Positions 12,426-63,267 of a DNA stretch of 64,000 nt are shown here, piece by piece. This DNA comes from Chrysomallon squamiferum. Lineage: Eukaryota; Animalia; Mollusca. The position numbers and the translations under genes were made by a program. The notes under the pieces were generated by a model that saw nothing but the letters and a program-made list of their open reading frames with translations, made no database searches and was not told the origin of the DNA. Numbering within the stretch: position 1 is the first letter of the stretch; every line of letters starts with the position of its first letter. The stretch lies in the NCBI GenBank assembly GCA_012295275.1, contig CM022665.1, positions 6,014,001-6,078,000 of the forward strand. Direction: 5' to 3'.

Positions 12426-13409
12426 TCAAGATCCAACACGGTGCAGTGTCCCCACACGTCTTGTTTCTTCTCTGTATCTAGCTATACAGTGCAACCAGCA
12501 GTTAACACTGAGTCGCTGACTAGCACTAAACCAATTACTGGCATAGGCTGTGGCCAAAAGCATGTGGACATCGTGCTCAAATTCTGTCCCACTTCGAAAG
12601 TATTGTTCATAGCACTTCTTTATAGCCAAAAATATCCGATCACTATCAACATACGTGGGTTTCTTTAGGAGAAATCTGGCAATAAGAAGTGACAGTCGAG
12701 CAATGCTTTGAGGTGTGTGGCCATAATCATATTTGGGATCGAACTCTGAGAACTGTAGTTCGTGAATCTCCTGTTGTTTTTCAGCCAGATCTTTTTTAGC
12801 TTTCTTGTATTCTCTGTCCAAAAACTGATTGCGGGCATCAGTAACTTGCAGTTCTCTTTTGAATGTGTTCACGTGCATTTCCAAACAATTGATTCTGTAT
12901 ATTAGTTCGGCCATATCAACATCGGCCATGGCATCACTGTCTCTGAAAGAACGACGTCGACGAAACCAGGTCAAATCTGCTTCATCATCATCCACAGAGG
13001 CAGCAATAGCCTGACACTGGATTTGATGAGTGGCCAGTTCAAATCTATTTACAGTTTCGCTGCATCCAGCGCACACTACAGGAAAATAGGGGCATACGTC
13101 CAAATGAGTCTGCAACATTTCCAGTTTAACCAGCACTTTACATCCTCGTTCAACATTATCACATTCTACCTGAAATCCGTTGATAAGATTTCGCAGCGAA
13201 TGGATGGGTTTTGCTTCCTTTGGATTGACGACGGCGCGACATTCAGGACAGGTGTCTGTATTAGGTCGACAAAGCCATGTCTCCAGACAAGGTGAACAGA
13301 AACTGTGGCCACATGTTGTGAGAACAGCATCTTCCAACACGCAGCTGCATATTCCACACAGAAGATTGGGGTCTACTGGTCCCACAAATCTTGCTGTTCC
13401 GTAACCCAT
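12426..13409 (-). CDS. Intronless RING (C3HC4) + TRAF-type zinc finger + coiled-coil E3 ubiquitin ligase, RNF41/RNF151/PDZRN3-N-terminus-like, 327 aa
   Basis: Single ORF. Start MGYxxxRFxGxVDxxLLCxIC is typical of NRDP1/PDZRN3/RNF151. RING CGIC..CGHSFC..C..CPEC; TRAF-type Zn finger CDNVERGC..HLDVC..CAGC..HQIQC; heptad-rich coiled coil follows. Confidence 0.9.
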   Translation of the reverse strand: MGYGTARFVGPVDPNLLCGICSCVLEDAVLTTCGHSFCSPCLETWLCRPNTDTCPECRAVVNPKEAKPIHSLRNLINGFQVECDNVERGCKVLVKLEMLQTHLDVCPYFPVVCAGCSETVNRFELATHQIQCQAIAASVDDDEADLTWFRRRRSFRDSDAMADVDMAELIYRINCLEMHVNTFKRELQVTDARNQFLDREYKKAKKDLAEKQQEIHELQFSEFDPKYDYGHTPQSIARLSLLIARFLLKKPTYVDSDRIFLAIKKCYEQYFRSGTEFEHDVHMLLATAYASNWFSASQRLSVNCWLHCIARYREETRRVGTLHRVGS

Positions 13410-13806
13410 CTTATTTCAGTACACACTTTATAACAGGAAAAACTTCTCTTCACACACACACACACACACACCACTTGAAGATATCACACGATATATTCTG
13501 AAAACATTTTCTCTCAGAAATCTTGACCATATCACACAAAAAAGTAATTTCTGTTAACTGTTACTGCGACTTGTTTGTTTTCATACATCACACATAACTG
13601 TTACTCGACAGGTTTGTTCTCATAGATCACACATAATAACTACTACAGCTTACCGTATTGCAAACTTCACCTGTAATCAGAACAATTTTTCTGAACTGCT
13701 TTGTCGAAATATACGTAACTAAAGATCTTAAAGCGGTTTCACTCTTCACTGCCTAGCCCGTTAAGGTTTAATCTTCTTGTTGCATACTTCAGCCAGACAT
13801 CGACTC

Positions 13807-31198: not shown

Positions 31199-34272
<3,074 letters not shown>

Positions 34273-38572: not shown

Positions 38573-40307
38573 ATGAACCAGGACAGTCAGTCAAAACTGG
38601 TAAGTAGTCCCTGATAGCAGTAATATTACTAGCATCAGTTCATCTTTGTACTTGGACATTTTTCTTTTCAAAGACATTAATTATGTTTATCTTTAATTTT
38701 ATTCTCTAAGTGTCTTCTTGCAGGAATTGGTCTGTGCAACATCCACAGAAATGAGCCAGATAAAATGTTTCATACCTAAACTAAAGAGTGCTCCAAATTA
38801 GTTTAGATGAAAGTGAAAATGAATAAACAGTTAATATATATTCAAAAGATTGGCTTATGATATCACATCTTCATTTTTCAGAATTGACTGAAAAAAATAT
38901 GTCGATGAATGAAGCTAAAATATAAAGGATTACCTTCAAACAGTTAAGAACAGATGATAGAAAAAATAAAATGAAGTGAACAAAAGAAAGAACAGATGTT
39001 GACCAAGTACCAAAATTTCATGTATTGTTGTTTTAACCATGATCTGTTTCAGTTTCAGATGATCATGAATATGACTCATTTTACAGAGTAATTAATATAC
39101 AAACAATAAAACTGTACACAAACTGAAAATATATGTATAGAAACATATGTATCTGTCTTTGTCTCTTAATATAAGACTGATTATTGTTATTTAAAGGTTA
39201 GGTTAGGGTTAGGTAGTATTCAGTAAGTAATATAGAAATAATCACATACAAGTGGACAGGAGACAGTTTGAAGTGGGTTTTTTCTCATTTTCCAATTACA
39301 TGTATCAGAATGTGTTTGTAACAAACTATTTTTGTGAAATGATAGTTGCTGTGTGTGTCTGTAACATTTTAGTTAACTGTTACTGTTAGAATAATTATCA
39401 GTAATGACAAAAAACAATATTTTTCATCATTACAAAATCACTGTTAATATTAGCAGTTTTATTTTTCTCTCTTGTTTAATGTTACATTTTGTAAGTAATA
39501 TATTCTGGGCAGGATTAAATTGAGACTGTGATGATTTATTTAAGATATCTGGTACCATGAATTGTTACCCCTTGAGATTGAAACCAGGCCAAGAACTGCA
39601 GTCTGCCTTGCTGAAGTTTGTAAAAGAAAATAACCTGGAGTCAGCTTTTGTCCTCACCTGTGTGGGAAGTATTACTAAGGCAAAACTGAGAATGGCCAAT
39701 GCTAAAGAAGTTAGTTACTATCTCAAATTTATATTACTTGATAATAATGTGAAAAATAAATAATCTGAAAAGAAAAAAAATGATTGTTTTACACACATAC
39801 ATATAAATAAGCACCAACACTTACATATACCACTGCACCTATAAACAAATGTTAAGAAGCCTCCACATCCATGCACTCAAAAAGATAATAACCCATCCAG
39901 TTATTAATTCACACAACAGAACTGTGGAAAACATAATAATGAGCACATGCACATGCACACACACACGCACACACACACAGATTTCAGTACAATATTCCAA
40001 ACTGCTGGTTTTATTTTGCACAATAAACTTCTCTGGTTGTTATATTCAGATAAAACTCATCGAAGGTCCGTTTGAAATAGTGTCGCTGGTTGGGACACTG
40101 TCAGGTGGAGAGACGGGACATCTCCACATCTCACTGAGTGACAGGGACGGCCACGTCATCGGTGGTCACGTTGTGAGTGATCTTACGATATACACCACTG
40201 CGGAGGTGATGATAGGCACATGTCGCAACGTGAAGTTCACGCGAGAGTTTGACGAACAGACTGGTTACGATGAACTGGTCATTTCACAAACTGGTGCCCA
40301 ACAATAA
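38573..40307 (+). CDS. PPC/DUF296 domain protein (often annotated 'bifunctional protein GlmU-like'), ~149 aa
   Basis: Exons 38573-38599, 39545-39709 and 40050-40307 (phases 0,0). Motifs LRLKPGQEL, AFVLTCVGS..A.LRMA, GPFEIVSLVGTL, HLHISLSD.DG.VIGGH, TTAEV, TREFDEQTGYDEL are typical of stand-alone PPC proteins. First exon is less certain; an alternative ATG lies at 39557. Confidence 0.9.
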
Positions 40308-52097: not shown

Positions 52098-52138
<41 letters not shown>

Positions 52139-52168
52139 CTAGGTTAGAGCCAGAAGGTCTTAAGTGCT

Positions 52169-52200
<32 letters not shown>

Positions 52201-53330
52201 CCTGGCTCTGATTCCTCGATATATGTATGAATGCTCTAAACAATAAGTACTAATATGGTTGCTGATATTAAAATGACATAAGCATTATATCAAACAGTTG
52301 TCAACAAACACATGATGGAGTAATTATGTCGGTTGATGTCTTTAGAAAAAGTAGTTTAGCTCCGATTTTGTGAGTATTTTACTAACTGATGTGGAACAAA
52401 AAAATTCAACAGCTAATACTGTAAGCGCTGTCTGCAATGGCTTCAACTTATGTAGCTTGGGAGCCATAATCTTTAGTATACTTTATCTATCTGTCTGTCT
52501 AGTATTGACCTCGATTTCACAGGCTAAGAAGGGAGAGCACTTGTCCAGAAAATGCGAGTGTAAACATTAACTCTAAATATACCGAAACATTAAACTTTAG
52601 TAAACGTAACAGCTACATAATAATTAATATAATAGTATAAGAACAATACACAGACATAAAAACAATGTAAACAAATGTCATACAGTTTACGTAAAGAAAA
52701 ATGTACAGTCTATCTGTATGTCTGTCTGTCTGTCTGTCTGTCTGTCTGCCTGAGGCAGTCTCTGTCTTTGTCTCTCTGTCTATCTTTCTGTCTGTCAGTA
52801 TGTCTGTCATTCCATCTCTCTCTTTCTTTCATATATACACACACATACACATCTGCACCAGTAAATTAGACTATCACTGAAACAAATCGATACAGGTGCT
52901 GTATGCCACGAAAAAAGATTCGAATACGGTAATGTTTTGTAATATTTTTATTTCATTTTCCGTACATTTCTAGATAAACAAAAGAAAAAAATAATAATAG
53001 ATATCACGATTTATGAACTGAAATACATTTTTCTAGTCCATATGGTAGCTTTGATAGTAGATAAAAAAAAGAAAAAATAATAACAATGCTTCATTCACTG
53101 TTTTAATCTTATCTTGCTTATTAAATAGTTCAAAAATAAACATATTAGTAATCCGAATCCATTTAACTTGCTTGTATAGAATGTCAGTTTTCTTCGTTAT
53201 AAATATCACAAGTATCAGTTGAAATAGTAGGTGTGATTGTATGTATTTACTATATTTTTTCTCTCTCTTTTTTTGTTCACAGTTGTAATAATATAGGTAC
53301 ACTGGATGACACTTCAAGATATGTGTTTGT

Positions 53331-53332
<2 letters not shown>

Positions 53333-53401
<69 letters not shown>
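53333..53401. repeat. (GT)n microsatellite
   Basis: Uninterrupted gt run. Confidence 0.95.
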
Positions 53402-53402
<1 letters not shown>

Positions 53403-53879
53403 TATCTGTGTGTGCTTTATTAAGTGTTTTTGCATGCACTGAATGATTAGTAATAATTTAGATATATATCAGAATCTGGCGTTTTGGAGTTATAAAGATT
53501 TCTTCGATTCGTAACTCTTGATGGCTGTATTAAAAATTACAATAGAACCGTAACAGAATAAAGACTTAAAACATTCTGTTTGAAGGTAAATATTTAATAA
53601 CTAAAGTTCCCAGTCAACTAAATTTCAAGCAATAACAACAATTTTACAAAGCTTAATTTGGTTGATTTGTATATTTTATTCCTGAAAGGTATAGCTTCGT
53701 TTTAATCACGATTGCACCATTCCCCAAAACACATATAATAGTTATCCATCTAACAAAATATCATTAACCGAAATAAATATAAAGATCGGAATACGTGAAT
53801 TACTGTGTACATAAAACTGTACTAAACTCCTGATTAGGTATTTTATTTATAACAAATATAATAATTAATTAGTCAGCAT

Positions 53880-55355
53880 TTATGGATGATCAGTTTTAGG
53901 TTCATCTGCTGGCCGAACCATTTCATGGTGGTTGTCTGCAAATTTATTTCTTCGTTCCTCCAGTTTGTGGTCGAGATCTACAGCAAGTAATATCGCTGTT
54001 ACCAGCCAGCCGACCATAGACAGGTTCATGAGAATATAGGCGAAACCAACGAGAAAATCAGTGGCGAACACAGCCTCGAAAAACACAGAGCCTTTAGTAG
54101 CATAGATGACAATTCCAGCTAGGATGAGTACCACTGCAAATAAACAGAACAATAACGAATGAAATCGTGATCAAATGAATGCAGAAAAGAATGAGGTCGG
54201 ACGAATGACTGAAATAGTGTTTAACGATATTTTAAAATATTTCATCATTAATGGGCAATAACTGTTAATATTATAGTACAATTATATTTCAGAAAATAAA
54301 TCCTATGTTGTCACTCGAGTTGCTAGTCTTGTGATTTAGCATGAAGATTTTTTTTGTTGTTTTTTGTTTTAGATCTACCCTGTCAGAAACGTTTTGGTCT
54401 TAGTAAGACAGAAAAGAGAATGTTAGTCTGGTGATAGGATTACGAAGTGTCGTTGTTTTACCTGTTAGAAATGACAGAACTGTTGCCACTACCAGGAACG
54501 ATTTGCTCTGAGCCTTTGAGCTGGAAAACAGTACAACGAGGACGAGGATGGTAGTTGTGCCAGCACTGATCACTCCTATAGCTTCCACAACCTGCACTAC
54601 TCGAAACCACATTTGTCCTGAAGGAAAAGAATACCTTAGGTCCGATGATTCAGAATACAAAAACATAAATAACCATTAGCATGGCCATCATAAACATAGG
54701 CATCACTGCGATCGTACTCATCATCATATCATCATTATCATTATTATCGTTTTCATCATTATCGTTAGTGTTGTCGTTGTAGTTGTTGTTATGGTTATAA
54801 TTATTATTATTATTGTAATCATTAATATTATTATTATTATTACTACTAGTACTACTACAACTACTACTACTACTATTATTACTATTATTAAAGTATTCCT
54901 ATGCTGATAAGTACGAGTTTATTATATTTCTGTCATATTTCATTGTTGACAAAGATCATCGCTTTATGTATATAAGTAATTACCACCAAAGCTATTCTTT
55001 AAAATAAGCACGTTATAAAGTTTTATTTAGCAAAAATCAAAACAGACAAAATCAAAAATTCTCGGTTTAGCTATATTCGAAGAATACTTTAATTCCTAAC
55101 AAACGTTAACTGTTCTAGAAACAAAACATGAAGTATCGTTTAAAACAATGGAATCTACTAACCACTGAGGGCGGGCGAATCCAGCGACGACACGCACATT
55201 CCGTTCTGACAGACCTCCCACAGACCTTCGTTAGAATTCGTTCTCTGACTCCAGAACGGCGACGTGAAACCAATCAGATGAGAAAAGAAAGTGACGAAGA
55301 TCACCAAGGCTGCGAGCTTCAACGCGACTGAAGTTTTACCACACTGGAACACCAT
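53880..55355 (-). CDS. Claudin/PMP22/EMP-family tetraspan membrane protein, paralog B (~200 aa)
   Basis: Exons 55355-55163, 54617-54462 and 54133-53880 (phases 1,1). PFW..EGLWEVCQNGMC; WFRVVQ; GFAY. Same intron positions and the same 156-nt middle exon as paralog A. Confidence 0.88.
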
Positions 55356-55751
55356 ACTGATACTATTTTAGTGATCACTTGGCACACAACGGAAACCTTA
55401 TCTTGTGATGATGATCAGTTGGTCGTTTCGTTTAAATAGACACATTTCTACACGTTATGCAAGACGGCGTGAGGCACATACCTAAACGATTCGGAAAAAA
55501 GGCTTCTTGTAATGCGCTAAGTTTATGCACAATGGTTATGGGTTTGAATTTTGTCTAGGAATAATAATCGATATGATAATATTGCAGCTAATATGACGGG
55601 AAAATGTAATTAAATCAGAACTAGGTGAGAAATTATTCCACCAATGCATTATCAATTCAGACATAACCTCTGTTAAGCTATAATGTTTCGGGAAATAATA
55701 AGTAAGTAAGTAAGTTAAGGAATGAAGGAAGGAAGGAAGGAAGTAAATAAG

Positions 55752-55782
<31 letters not shown>

Positions 55783-56144
55783 ATGTTAATTTTAAAAATC
55801 CCGGTTTTCAAACGTTCATTCGTCTGAGAAAATATACTCCACTTGTATAGGCTGTATTTTTTAAATATTTGTTTATAACAGAAACAATACTGTTATTATT
55901 ATTATTAGAACCACTACGATTCCTGTTGCAGCTAGTAGCAGTAGTAATAGTAGTCTTGTTGTTGCTGTTGTTTTTGTCATGTCTGTAATTATTGTGGCTG
56001 GTTTTGCTGCTGTTGCTGTATTTGCTATTTTTTTTTTTTTTTAATTGTTTTCTCTAGTTGTTTTTGTAAACTGCTTATTTGTAGTTGCTGTTGTTGTGAT
56101 TGTGTTGTCATTGTTATTTTTGTTTTGTTTTTGTTACTATTAGT

Positions 56145-56186
<42 letters not shown>

Positions 56187-56319
56187 ATTATTATTATTAT
56201 TATTATTAACACAGTGGTTTATTAAACGCAAACAAACAGTGGAGTAATAATGTTCATTTCTGAGCTTTCGTATTTGGTACTAGGTGTGGAAATTAGCTGT
56301 TAATTTAGAACAGTCTGTT

Positions 56320-56357
<38 letters not shown>

Positions 56358-58180
56358 CACTAATCCCAAATTTGAGAAGCTCAGCAACAGTTTCAATAAC
56401 AAATGTAACTATCAGCCAGTTCAGAACGTCCTGAACGATAATAAAAAAAAAAAAAAAAAAAAAAAAAATCACGCCGCCACTGTCCATTACGTCATACCTT
56501 TTCAAATTTTAAACACGGATATGTTTCAAGTATTCATTACATAACGTCCACTGTTACGTCTATTTCTGTAACTACGAATTGAGTTACTAATCGAAATAAA
56601 TGTTAACTGGAGTGTAATGACCATGCACTTTTTTTTTTTTGCCATGTTTAAATGAATGTGCAAATGGGTGTACGTACGAATGTGTATACTATGTTCGTAG
56701 GTACGTATGCACTTAATTTACATCATTGCACCAGTAGTTGGTGGGCATGTTTTTATGCTCTTGTGGATCTAATTATCACAAGTATGACATTGTTCGACAC
56801 GTCTGGTGTAGTGTTACATTAGAACGTATTGGCCACGTCTCATTACGTTTCAGATAATATTACACTAATGAATTTGTGCATTGTTTAAAGAGCAGATTTA
56901 AACACTTGTCTTTCTCCACTGTTTATTATATAGCTGATACGCTGACGATAAGCTTTCTTTTCTTTCTGTTTTTTTCATATATAGGAGGGAAAATATGTTA
57001 CAAAGAAGAAAAAAAAATAAGAAAAAGATAAAACAACAGAAAGAGGATTTACAGTGGCGAAATTTCAAGCAGCTTTTCTGTTTATAGGTGGTGGTATTGT
57101 TTTTCTTTTCTTTTTCTTCTTTTTTTTTTTTTTTTTATAAAGTCTACCGTTAATTTTAAAAGTTGATACAAACAGTGTTAATAAAAGAACAAGGTGTCAA
57201 GTAATATTATTATAACAGTTTCTAAAATTTGTGTTTCATAATCTAGCTTGACTATACATTAAAAACAATATCATCATCTAACCTGTTAAAAATAATATAT
57301 TTTTATTATTATTATTGTCGTTTGTTGTTGATGTTGTTATTATTATTATTATCATTATTATTATTTTAAAATTATGATAAATTGGGAAAGTGTTTACTTG
57401 TTTAAACGTATCACTCTGTTGACTGAAAAATCTGCCTGGCACATGAAGTAGAGTTAGGTTTAGTTACTGAGGATAGACGTTTACATTACTGTATATTCTG
57501 TTCTACAATAAAGTTACAGTAGTTGCCAAAATGCTATCTTGATATTTCCAAGCCATAAAGCCAATGGTTTACCTTTATGGTTTTCGTGTTAGATAATCTA
57601 TTTAGTCTCTAGGTAATTAGGACTGCACAACGTGGCATGTGCCTTGGTCAAAACTGTGTGGGCCATTTTGTCAAGACGCCTACGATTTCACTCAAATTTT
57701 ATAAAGCGCTTTCTGGGTTTTGGTGGGGGTTTTTCACAATTAATTATTCAGGTATTTCTCTTCCAAAAAGTGTGAATAGACTTTTATCTAAATTCTGAAG
57801 TTACTTGTAATATTAAGAGGTTTATTTAGTTAAATCTGATGTTATTTCGTTTCAGTAGCTGTCTGTACGAGAGTAGACCGTTGCTTGGCGGCAGCATATT
57901 TTCATTTTCTTATTGTTTGCTGCTAATATTAATTAAATTTCCAGAACAATTTGTTATTATTATTATTTTATTTTGTCTGGGTTTTTTGTTAACATCACCA
58001 AAATAAAATAAATAACTAAATAAAATAAACAAACAACAATAACTTATTTGTATTCTTAAAAAAACAGAATACATATAATTTCCTGACCTGATTACACAGT
58101 AATCAAACAACAGCATTCTGAGATATAGAAATAAATATATTAACTTTATCATACACTTTACCTTCAACAATAACTCATAC

Positions 58181-60165
58181 CTATGTTATGTCCATGGCAT
58201 AAATTTCAGCCACGTCTCTAATAAGAGCTAAGTCAATTATTTTTATTTGTTCATCGTCATATTGTCCATTTGGTGTAGAATTCCTGTTTGCACTGCTCTG
58301 TGCGCGGAAAGAAGCATTTTCATTCCTTTCTAGTCTTGCATTTTCTTTAGACGCGTGTTTCACTGTATTATAACAGTCCTCCATAGCAATGTGACTGGAG
58401 TGTTCAAAATGTTCGATGGCAGATATTATGTTATTGAAACAACATGTGTGCGTCTTGTCAAAGTCTTCACTTTTTATTTCTTGATTTGTCACATATTCTG
58501 CTGAGAAGTCACGACTGAAAACACTGTCTTGTTTCCTTCTGTCAGAGTATTCTATTCGATTGGGAAAATCAAAGCCGTTATTTTCGAAGTACTCTTGAAG
58601 ACCCGTTGATCTTTGCTGAGTCCTTGCGCTGTACGAATTCTGATCATGATTCTGATCTGGTTTCAGAAAGAGAATTTGTTTCAACACACTGTCGTCTACA
58701 CCCGTCTCTTCGACTACTTTCCCGTTGTTGTTATCATCCACTTCCTCAACTACTACTTCAGGATGGGTTGTGTTAATTCCCAACTGTGATAAAAATAGCA
58801 CATTTTCATTGTTATTTTTGTTAATCGGAAATTCGGTGCAAGCATTCTCTGTGGCTACCAGATTAACATAGCTATTACCCTGGCCTGGGACTGTGTAGTT
58901 ATCGGTCATCCTTTCCTGGTTGCTGTCTGTGGAACACGACGGTCTTTTCAAAGAGCTGTGTCCACCAGTATTCTCACTAGTAAGAAGCGACAGCATGTTT
59001 TCAATTTCGGAGGTTGTCAGAAACGGTTCAGGAGGTTGCGTATACGGAGCAGGTGACAGTGGTTTTGACAGTGTTTCTGATTCGAATGAAAGTGATGATG
59101 ACGATGATGAATATGACGCCGAGTTCGAAAACGGAGATGATCCGGAGGCTGGTGACGCCGCTGCAGATGATCCGGAAATTGGCGAAATCGCCGCTGGCGA
59201 CAGCGTAACCGGTGAAGTTGGCGCCGGTGATGATGATGAATAGGATGATGATGATGATGATGATGATGACCTTGATGAAACGGATGCTGACCTAGATGAA
59301 AGAGATGATTCTGGTAGATAAGTCGACGTCACTTTTTGATCCGATGGTGATGTTGTTGACAACGGCGTCAACGATTCTAACCGTGCAGAGAACATGTTTG
59401 TCACCGAGTCTGGTTCTGAGCGGAAGACGTTCTGGCTGACTGACGAAAACGCAGAGGACAGCGGTGGCAGAGACGACGACATCATGGATGACGTGGCTGA
59501 GTGAGAACGTTCTGAACAGTCTGGTAGTTCGGGTGCGAGGTATTCTGTTGACGTTGGTGCACGCACATTTTCATCAGAAGCGTCCAGCACGTGCGATCTG
59601 TGGTAGTTTCCGGGACACGGTAAACCCAACCCTTGATTGTCAGCAGTGTTTTGGTAACAACTTGACAACTCCTCGGAATTTAAACCAGCGTCAGAGCTTT
59701 CGAAATATTTGCCTTTTTGTGAGTGCGAAGGAAACGATTTAGTAAGAAGTGAAATGAGGGATAACGAAGAGTCTCTGGACTCGTCCACAACAACGGACTT
59801 CTGACTGTCCGTCTGTGCTGAACGTTGTTGTTGGTCTTCCTTCTGGCTGCTCATTTTGGCTTCGTGGCAGTATCTTAAAGATAATTTCCTTAAATTATCA
59901 TTTTCTGGGCTAAATGTTTTTCTTGGACGACCCATTTTGATGGCTGAAAGAACAGTAACTAAACTGTCATATACAGTTTTCTCTAGACAATGAAATCTCA
60001 ATTTTAAGGTGAAGCTAATATAATTGTAAAAAAAAAAAAATAATAATAATAATAATAATAACAAATAAATACAAACATTGTAATCTTAAAAATAACGGTA
60101 TATTGTGAATCTTACTGAATATAGATGTCACTGTTAACATTTTATCGTTAATCATAAATGAACTG

Positions 60166-60196
<31 letters not shown>

Positions 60197-62357
60197 AAAG
60201 TAATAATTATTATTAGTTTAAGAAATAAACCTACCATCACGTGACATGCCGAGTGACACACATTTCTGGTAACGACAAAAACGACAGTTGTTACGATTTC
60301 TAGGATTGATCACGCAGGAATGTTTCTGGGTACACAGGTAAGTTTTGTGTTCTACAAGTCCTCGCCGAAAGAATTTCTATATTGAGATTACCAAATATTT
60401 ATAATAAAAATACAGCAATTAAAAAACCCCAAAACATTATAAATTGCCTTTACACTAACTGTCAAGCCTATGTAAAAATATTTTGAAAGTAAAATCCAAA
60501 CATGTTTCTGTATTAAAAGAGTTACAAAATATTTTCCAATTGTTTTAAACTTTCCTTCATCAATATCAACGTTTTTCTTTTAATAATACTTCGTGAATTT
60601 CCATATTTTTCGTTCGTTAAACTTTAAATTCGTAATCTGAGTTCGCTTAATACATTTTTTTGTTTTGCAAATGCGATTTGAAAACTTAAAAACAGTATGT
60701 AAAACGTTTTGCATTTGTTTCTTGCAATGTAAGCCATGAAAACACTACAAAATTCTGAACTGAGCCGAATTAAGGTTATTATTAACAAACTGATTTAATG
60801 TTTCTTACTTTACATCCTTCGCAAGTTTTGATTCCAAAATGAGTCCCGTTAGCGATGTCACCACAAACCAAACATAGGATCTGACCGTCCGCGGGCTCAA
60901 CTTTCTCCGGTTTTTCTGTTCAAAAGCAATTATTACTTAGCACGAACAATCACATATTCATTATTCTTATTTCTACCAAAACAATGATACTGAATAATAA
61001 AAGTTACTGCATAACATCTCACATGGTGTTGCACGCCAATAGTTTAGTTCTGTTACGCAGTGAAACTACTTGACTATTTTCGTTAAGAAAACATCAAAAT
61101 GTCTATATAATCAAAATTACTTTTCTTTAAGAATAATTTTCACCAATAACAAATGATTATTTATTATGTTAAATATGATTTGTTAAAGAACATAATTTAA
61201 AAAAATCCATTAGAAAAGTTTTCTCAAATTACTTAGATCATAAAATAAAACGTTTAATTATTGAAAGACGAAACTGCTTCTCGGTAGTCTTGTAGATATA
61301 CGTTTCAATGAATTTACGACAGTCTAGAATAATATTTTTCCAAAAGGCTTTTATTTTTAATTTCTGACAAACAAAGATTTCCTCGCAACTATATTACTTA
61401 ATGCATGTTATGGATTCTCCTTGGAACAATATTTGTAAAAAACATATTTTTGATGATTGTGGTTTAACATATACATGGACTTATCACAAATTTGATAATG
61501 TTAAATGGTTACGTGAAACGACATCCAAAATATTTCATGATCAACAAATACTGAAAATTGAAACTGAAATGTCTCCAAAGGATATTAATTATACATTTTG
61601 TTTTAAAAATGAATTGAATTTAGAAAATTATCTTACTGTGCAGCCTCAAAAGAATGTTAATATAAATTTAGAACCTCTAATGTTACACTTCCTACTGAAA
61701 CTGGATGATGGTTTAATATTCTAAGAGAAAATAGAAAATGTCATATTTGTAGACTTGACAAAATTGAAGATGAATATCATCATATATTTGAATGTGATGA
61801 TCCTATATTATTAAATGCAAGAAAAGGTATACGAGATAAATATACGAGACATCCAAATATATTTTCATATAATAATATTAAAAACGTTATGTTTGTTAAT
61901 AAGAACTATATACGTGAGAGAATATGTCATCCACGTTAAACTTCCGCGCATGTGCAGTTTGATTTTGTTGTTACATGTCTGTAACACATTCTTCTCTGTA
62001 CTGTAATTCAACAGTTCATGAGAATAAAGTCGCTGTCATTGACATTGTCACATACAGTAGACCAATAAGCTTGGACTGCTCGCTTATGGAAGGTGATTAG
62101 GGATCGGTGTGTTTTAAAGTGTTCGAGTCACTGACTGGGGATTGCCGCTCTGAGAAAAAGAAACTCAACAGCTGTTTTGTACCAGAGATAGCTAACAGCT
62201 GTGTGCAACCCGTATGGGAACTGACCCTTCGTGAAAAAGTACTTCATAAATGTGTGACCGACACCTTCACCTCTGGGTCATTCGAGTGCTAAGTGATTCA
62301 AAGACTTTATCGACGGTCATGTATAGAGTGATGAGAATCTGACATAACTGCACGGTG

Positions 62358-62411
<54 letters not shown>

Positions 62412-62690
62412 AAAGAAACGATTATTTCAAACCATCGTCAGAATAAGGAATTTATTTCATGTTTTATTTCGGAAAACAATATTAGCACTCGTTAACGCGG
62501 AGAGTAAAGCAGAATCCTTATTTCTTCCATTCCAGAAAGTAACATCGAACCGTTTTATCCAAAGAGCCTGTGATGTTCATCAACAGCAGGAATCCAAGAA
62601 ATGACGACAAAATTTTCCTCTCTCTTTTAATACTGCTGTTATTACTATTATTACTATTACTGCTGTTACTACTACTACCATTAATAACAA

Positions 62691-62747
<57 letters not shown>

Positions 62748-62971
62748 TAATAATAGACTATTGACATATTATTATTACCGTTTATATTAATAAAAATAAT
62801 ATTTGCTCAGCTTAGTTTGCTTTTCTTTCAGGATTAGAATAATAAATAAATAAATAATAATAATAATAATAATAATAATAATTTAAAAAAAATAATAATG
62901 ATAAAAATAATAATAATAGTAATAATAATAATAATAATAATAATTAAAAAATAATAATAATAATAATAACA

Positions 62972-63004
<33 letters not shown>

Positions 63005-63267
63005 GTAATAATAATAATTTTTAAAAAATAAATAATAAAAATAATAGTAACAGTAATAATAATAACAATAATAACAAATAAATAAATAAATAAAAATCGG
63101 ACAGGTGTAATTAACCGTTTACCTTTCCTGACCATTCCCACCGCCAGACATTTGAGATATCGACACTTCTGACAGCGAATCCTGCCACGTTTGATGACAC
63201 TGCACGAGCTGTCACACTGACCCGGCGTGTCACTGTCTCTTGTCTTCTTACAGCGAATGAAAAAACT
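58181..63267 (-). CDS. Nuclear receptor with two tandem DNA-binding domains (2DBD-NR, delta/B-type-like); 5' end outside window; no LBD seen
   Basis: Exon 63267-63123: [29 protein letters not shown]. Exon 60915-60809: [36 protein letters not shown]. Exon 60376-60235: [40 protein letters not shown]. Exon 59943-58181: AIKMGRPRK plus Ser-rich tail to stop. All GT-AG, phases 1,0,1; 718 aa within the window. Confidence 0.93.
62306..62357 (+). repeat. 52-bp sequence identical to 28967-29018, followed by (TTA)n
   Basis: Exact match; lies in an intron of the 2DBD receptor. Confidence 0.9.

Follow-up and report, generated by a model that had tools for sequence, protein, structure and literature searches.

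A spliced nuclear receptor gene of the mollusc 2DBD-NRB1 type without a detectable ligand-binding domain in Chrysomallon squamiferum

The 64,000-nucleotide stretch of the Chrysomallon squamiferum genome analysed here (assembly GCA_012295275.1, contig CM022665.1, positions 6,014,001 to 6,078,000; termed the window in the following) carries on its minus strand a gene for a nuclear receptor with two DNA-binding domains (DBDs) in tandem and without a detectable ligand-binding domain (LBD). Four exons were assigned to it, named A to D (Table 1). When these are joined, one of the three frames is open and encodes 718 amino acids (aa) followed by a stop codon, with 31 and 52 stops in the other two. 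AG acceptors precede all four exons, GT donors follow exons A to C, and exons A, B and C each score above the curated cut-off of the Pfam family zf-C4. The original prediction, made from the sequence alone, had joined three small exons in frame to a long open reading frame (ORF), which agrees with the structure found; this ORF comprises 634 codons from stop to stop, the first 48 of which are intron. The serine richness that was ascribed to the tail as a whole applies to tail residues 131-305 (38% Ser) and not to the remaining parts (9-17% Ser). The first zinc finger and the P-box of DBD1 were not found in the window by a six-frame motif scan, and the starting serine of exon A and its acceptor at 63267 are based on the reading frame and the orthologue described below, not on reads.

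Table 1. Features of the receptor gene and other annotated features in the window (positions are those of the window; E, E-value)
Feature	Position	Strand	Description
Exon A	63123..63267 (145 nt)	-	DBD1: last P-box residue (S), recognition helix, second zinc finger; zf-C4 E 3.6e-8
Exon B	60809..60915 (107 nt)	-	larger part of the 17-aa linker, then the DBD2 first zinc finger as far as CEGCK; zf-C4 E 1.9e-8
Exon C	60235..60376 (142 nt)	-	remaining DBD2: EGCKK P-box completed, C-x5-C-x9-C-x2-C finger; zf-C4 E 8e-14
Exon D, coding part	58181..59943	-	G-box KMGRP, then 586-aa tail without LBD; TAG at 58183-58181
Likely 3' untranslated region	57826..58180	-	contigs of runs X2, X3 and X4 end at 58082, 58055 and 58040; AATAAA at 57972 and 57826
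C-terminal block	58184..58447	-	conserved with Gigantopelta, both ending at the same residue; no likeness to an LBD
Acidic amphipathic helix (tail 310-320)	58982..59014	-	in NRB1 proteins with and without LBD; candidate cofactor-binding/activation motif
LxxLL motif (tail 62-66)	59744..59758	-	aligned with Gigantopelta LxxLL; not general in the subfamily
RING and TRAF-zinc-finger protein, 329-codon ORF	12426-13415	-	Pfam
PCC-domain exon	39807-40307	+	Pfam
Sushi-domain exon	31386-31832	-	Pfam

Five public runs contain the stretch, and four of them are recorded as RNA from one study (X1 to X4); RNA evidence was taken from contigs of these four, which were placed on positions 52100-62650. The joints 59943/60235 (exons C and D) and 60376/60809 (exons B and C) are present at the predicted bases in all four runs. 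The junction of exons B and A was seen in one of them (X3), among the loose ends listed, as 30 letters identical to 63125-63154 at the end of exon A; contig 17 of this run carries exons D, C and B and continues for 382 letters beyond exon B, which is more than exon A holds. As a contig with D, C and B thus continues into the end of exon A, the three zf-C4 exons are joined and both tandem C4 DBDs belong to one transcript, as had been predicted, and not to separate ones. In three of the four runs (X2, X3 and X4) the stop codon is crossed unspliced, and transcripts that leave exon D for LBD-coding exons were not seen in these contigs. Contig 10 of X2 contains the joint of exons C and D together with the stop and differs from the window in a single letter (59690), and contig 15 of X3 spans the stop without any differing letter. 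Directly after the TAG lies a donor-like sequence, GTATGAG (58180-58174), of a kind found at 0.4% of sites; no joint at this site was present in the contigs of X1 to X4. As a guess, it may be the relic of a donor that once led to LBD exons. Stop read-through was ruled out, as the frame closes one codon after the TAG.

A HMMER search with exon A returned 42 proteins. The best match with two DBDs is the Gigantopelta aegis protein XP_041351328 (P0008), which was named Ga2DBD-NRB1 by Wu and LoVerde 2023 (PMC10497141, cited here and below from the parts available); a further search with its DBD pair returned 44 proteins. Across 142 DBD columns, the window protein is 72% identical to the Gigantopelta protein, and the second-best protein reaches 68%. 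In a quick tree of 46 rows the gene falls inside a 42-row NRB group (SH-aLRT 96), and in a careful DBD tree of 20 rows it is the sister of Ga2DBD-NRB1 at 98/89. As judged from these trees, the gene and Ga2DBD-NRB1 are orthologues. NRB receptors are defined by the P-box pair LPCKS-EGCKK, 17-22 aa between the DBDs and the G-box KxGR(P/H) (PMC10497141), and the window gene fits this definition in its linker (17 aa), its G-box (KMGRP) and EGCKK. For the P-box of DBD1 the window holds the final serine, LPCK is predicted for an upstream exon, and the Gigantopelta orthologue has LPCK. The earlier assignment to the 2DBD-NRB or oyster delta type is thus upheld by linker, G-box and DBD phylogeny. The single LBD with Ti signature and activation function 2 (AF-2) that follows the hinge in the canonical 2DBD layout was not found. 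By its sequence, the gene therefore belongs to the NRB lineage by descent, without having the DBD-DBD-LBD layout, and it also falls under the formal NR0 rule, by which a DBD is present and an LBD absent, whatever the origin (PMC10497141). In the second finger of DBD1 (63159-63200, exon A) a D-box of the form C-x3-C replaces C-x5-C; the available part of the published alignment has C-x3-C in gastropod NRB rows, and the bivalve rows keep both cysteines (PMC10497141). A metagenome scan gave two loci with 24 matching residues at 54%, which were not used, and word-indexed searches (tail, 7981 candidates; exon A, one candidate) found nothing, blanks that are uninformative as the method also misses the true relative in Gigantopelta.

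The original prediction had noted that no LBD signature follows DBD2 and had proposed a Pfam search as a check. The zf-C4 matches and the lack of a tail family (no Pfam family at E<=1 in the 586 aa) came out as expected. As a test such a search is insufficient: Hormone_recep misses 9 of 17 NRB proteins with full LBD, the oyster protein included, so that Pfam is unable to decide on the absence of an LBD. An NRB-specific LBD profile was made from 11 NRB LBD seeds, with which six held-out LBDs score 189-280 bits. No match to this profile was found in the tail of the window protein (P0005) or in the Gigantopelta protein (P0008). Against the whole window, cut into 3462 six-frame pieces, its best score was only 4.2 bits, a value that 34 of 36 held-out 40-aa pieces of LBDs exceed (27 reach E<0.01). 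Since a profile comparison of whole proteins aligned only the DBDs, the tails were compared separately, and the profile-profile probability was 0.2% for the two tails from the window and Gigantopelta, 52% for the helix-1 remnant of abalone and 100% for the positive control. A tblastn search of the window with the 11 LBD seeds gave a best E of 0.033 at an unrelated place, the 60 matches listed of the 88 in a PDB search were all to DBDs of other receptors, and a protein atlas search with tail residues 400-586 gave no usable match. The AlphaFold model of the tail has a mean predicted local distance difference test (pLDDT) score of 33 and is uninformative on an LBD fold, and a single-sequence model of the Gigantopelta protein reaches a pLDDT of 32 even on its DBDs. 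Taken together, the LBD is very probably truly absent from the main product of the gene.

The tails from the window and from Gigantopelta are collinear end to end, with 177 of 559 positions identical and the same last residue. Over the last 100 residues the pair scores 125, compared with 28.7 +/- 5.3 for shuffled sequences, none of 1000 of which reach this score; comparisons to 57 further NRB tails give 49 or less. As the tails align end to end and share their last residue, an assembly error or a private nonsense allele is excluded, and the loss of the LBD appears to be old. The conservation of the last 100 residues, for which three helices are predicted, could also mean that the tail fold replaced the LBD or descends from it and still binds a ligand or partner. 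This is very unlikely: no profile or profile-profile match was obtained although the helix-1 remnant of abalone is detectable, the hydrophobic content of the C-terminal block is 28%, and the block has under half the length of an LBD.

LBD loss was surveyed in 66 representatives, of which 44 with both NRB P-boxes and more than 450 residues were kept and 22 were dropped as fragments or other receptors. Among the 44 relatives, 33 have a full LBD (11 of these being the profile seeds), four a remnant or partial LBD and seven none, namely those of Gigantopelta, Pecten, Mizuhopecten, Patella, Physella, one Nucella paralogue and Tegillarca. The state of the gene is thus not unique to this genome, a point that had been put forward for checking in related gastropods: the RefSeq orthologue of Gigantopelta and several other mollusc NRB proteins also lack the LBD. 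Some of the LBD-less models may be annotation splits, as in Mytilus galloprovincialis, where VDI78403 lacks the LBD, VDI78402 consists of the LBD only and a full-length model exists in the same species. In scallops the loss looks real on comparison of the sequences, four genera (Pecten, Argopecten, Ylistrum and Mizuhopecten) and one transcript-derived protein sharing one conserved LBD-less end, and in two abalone species NRB1 ends after helix 1. Solemya, oysters, mussels and clams retain a full LBD and bivalves are reported to have a single NRB gene (PMC10497141), and the loss in scallops is therefore likely separate from that in the lineage of the window gene and Gigantopelta. In approximately unbiased (AU) tests none of three single-loss groupings was rejected (p-AU 0.11-0.27), a single clade with the scallops giving 0.18-0.27. 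With about even odds, two DBDs with their four zinc fingers, in the absence of an LBD, represent an unrecognised receptor class that arose more than once in mollusc 2DBD-NRB1 (Gigantopelta lineage, scallops, abalone, limpet), in which the second DBD would make the dimer surface of the LBD dispensable and a one-chain dimer would act without ligand via the conserved hinge helix. Some of the database proteins found with exon A (P0007, P0018, P0022, P0026 and P0027) carry between 4 and 11 zf-C4 stretches and lack a Hormone_recep match.

Ga2DBD-NRB1 resembles the window gene in its collinear tail, in having the same end, in lacking the LBD and over its DBD pair, and its RefSeq name is 'serine-rich adhesin for platelets-like'. 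In the available parts of PMC10497141 it is listed as a 2DBD receptor without a remark on a missing LBD, and it does not appear in the LBD lists S3 and S4 or in a name search of S5. The LBD-signature list has 17 NRB rows, and the NRB entries of Gigantopelta, Lottia, abalone B1 and scallop are not among them (PMC10497141). The 2DBD-NRB1 proteins of oyster, mussel and clam (Cg2DBD-delta, XP_011428801) share with the window gene the type of P-box pair, the 17-aa linker, the G-box and the acidic hinge helix, but they have a full divergent LBD of ~250 aa and a DBD1 D-box of the form C-x5-C, compared with C-x3-C here. Scallop 2DBD-NRB1 (two DBDs, no LBD) and abalone NRB1 (helix-1 remnant only) are similar in layout, whereas their C-terminal sequences differ from the tail of the window gene. 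NR0A receptors are characterised by a single knirps-type DBD and co-repressor motifs. The NR0A members knirps, knirps-related, eagle and ODR-7 likewise contain a DBD without LBD and are ligand-independent, but they have one DBD, another ancestry and an occurrence in arthropods and nematodes, and patterns of the CtBP/Groucho type were not found in the window protein. The available part of PMC10497141 draws four receptor layouts, none of which has two DBDs without LBD, and places the known receptors that lack an LBD in arthropods and nematodes. In the literature searched, including the available text of PMC4070562, PMC4388693 and PMC8363021, a coverage outside of which most subscription papers lie, no mention was found of 2DBD receptors having lost the LBD. 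The receptor family and the Gigantopelta orthologue are thus already in print, and the LBD-less state in 2DBD receptors, as read from the sequences, is apparently a new observation.

Two tail motifs bear on the possible activity of the protein. A profile of the acidic helix at tail residues 310-320, made with the window copy left out, scores at least 6.8 bits in 37 of the 59 NRB tails compared, a redundant set in which the helix occurs whether or not an LBD is present; the window copy reaches 7.3 bits and the best of 59 shuffled tails 2.1. This helix is predicted as the best-confidence stretch of the otherwise poor AlphaFold model, and we take it to resemble acidic activation motifs. The block around the LxxLL motif scores 38 with Gigantopelta, which 2 of 1000 shuffles reach, and 16% of shuffled tails contain some LxxLL.

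At a probability of roughly 0.55, this locus is read as a spliced 2DBD-NRB1 gene without a detectable LBD, a state common to its Gigantopelta orthologue, and as encoding a transcription factor that probably functions as a monomer and independently of ligand. That the product is a functional transcription factor is probable, and whether it is an activator through its tail motifs is close to an even call. In the proposed mechanism, the two DBDs with their 17-residue spacing would recognise a pair of half-sites, so that a single chain would serve as a dimer; DBD1 would use the predicted LPCKS P-box and DBD2 would use EGCKK together with the G-box. Sm2DBD-alpha homodimerises through its LBD, where the dimer surface lies, according to the available part of PMC1810520, and loss of the LBD would therefore have removed ligand pocket, AF-2 and homodimer surface together. 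The disordered tail would supply the output, most probably activation via the conserved acidic helix recruiting cofactors, and activity would be set by expression or modification and not by a hormone. Expression of the oyster orthologue at metamorphosis (PMC7827873) and of a Lymnaea NRB gene at gastrulation (PMC11589774), each as given in the text available, hints by analogy at a developmental role.

Knirps represses via CtBP and Groucho, and LBD-less receptors of the NR0A type exist. The protein could in the same manner be a constitutive repressor, or it could block the sites of other receptors as a dominant negative. An overlap of sites is possible, as EGCKK of DBD2 is one residue from the NR1-type EGCKG, and co-repressors can also bind short amphipathic helices. 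A repressing or blocking role is nevertheless doubtful, since PxDLS, a terminal WRPW and eh1-like patterns are missing from all five LBD-less tails scanned and, without an LBD, there is no poisoning of a partner by dimerisation. Ligand independence, one part of the function originally proposed, remains a fair inference; the dominant-negative part has little in its favour, as the LBD that was lost is the domain with the dimer surface of 2DBD receptors (PMC1810520) and the available part of Table 1 of PMC10497141 lists no second, LBD-bearing NRB for Gigantopelta or scallops, abalone having one.

Several points weigh against reading the gene as an LBD-less, activating receptor. Its first exon or exons lie outside the window; the RNA support comes from a single study and consists of contigs, which lose rare isoforms and do not represent single molecules; the contig of X1 stops at 58288, short of the stop codon; a good donor-like sequence lies directly 3' of the stop; and the search for LBD exons reaches 58 kb downstream, so that exons farther off could exist. 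An LBD might accordingly still be made, either from distant exons to which exon D is spliced in other tissues or stages, or by a separate gene, the short form being an isoform or an annotation split of the kind that occurs in Mytilus galloprovincialis. This is improbable, as no LBD exon is present in the window and other genes start within 2.8 kb of the stop (the next ATG is at 55355, in line with the distance of ~2.8 kb predicted), the donor-like site would add no coding sequence if used and is crossed unspliced in three runs, and Gigantopelta shares both the conserved C-terminal block and the place of the stop. On the side of function, the DBDs of Sm2DBD-alpha did not bind AGGTCA repeats in an electrophoretic mobility shift assay, as far as the available text of PMC1810520 goes, the helix of the window protein is less acidic than the bivalve copies and its score is weak (7.3 bits, E 0.038), and the helix profile found no such helix in the LBD-less Patella protein. 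Tail polymorphism indicates no significant purifying selection (pN/pS 0.59, p 0.16; 24 listed variants), the variants listed in exon D comprising 8 synonymous and 16 non-synonymous changes, none of which makes a stop. A pN/pS not significantly below 1, together with branches longer than those of the bivalve orthologues, would fit a decaying transcribed gene that is heading for loss; this is highly improbable, as the G-box and every zinc ligand within the window are intact and the 1.76-kb frame is open in two species, with conserved blocks.

Downstream of the receptor gene, two similar small membrane-protein genes lie in tandem on the minus strand (55355-53880 and about 50830-49235), each with a GLWxxC first exon. 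By this motif we take them to be claudin/PMP22-like; Pfam gave no claudin match on the single exons tried. The joint 54133/54462 in the membrane-protein gene downstream was found in run X1. In the same run, and in no other, a contig with a depth of 6.8 and a short side of 33 letters connects the exon B donor at 60809 to an AG acceptor at 55481 on the minus strand and skips exons C and D. This acceptor lies upstream of the ATG of the next gene, and the receptor frame closes 8 codons on, leaving DBD1 and half of DBD2; the joint may reflect read-through transcription by which the neighbouring gene acquires a leader derived from the receptor. In the intron between exons A and B, positions 61300-61950 are a dispersed repeat with many contigs having differing letters and loose ends, and a 118-codon plus-strand ORF in it has no Pfam family above cut-off.

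For the receptor family, which is defined by the order DBD-DBD-LBD in the part of PMC10497141 available, two DBDs without LBD would be a fifth receptor layout. Two warnings follow for its annotation: Pfam misses about half of the NRB LBDs, and RefSeq hides NRB genes under names like 'serine-rich adhesin' or 'FLO11-like'. The receptor inventories of farmed scallops and abalone change, since neither ligands nor pollutants could target this gene in its LBD-less state. Natural test pairs are provided by oyster and mussel with LBD and scallop without, and by abalone, which has one paralogue of each kind; such pairs can show whether tandem DBDs replace dimerisation and what the purpose of an orphan LBD is.

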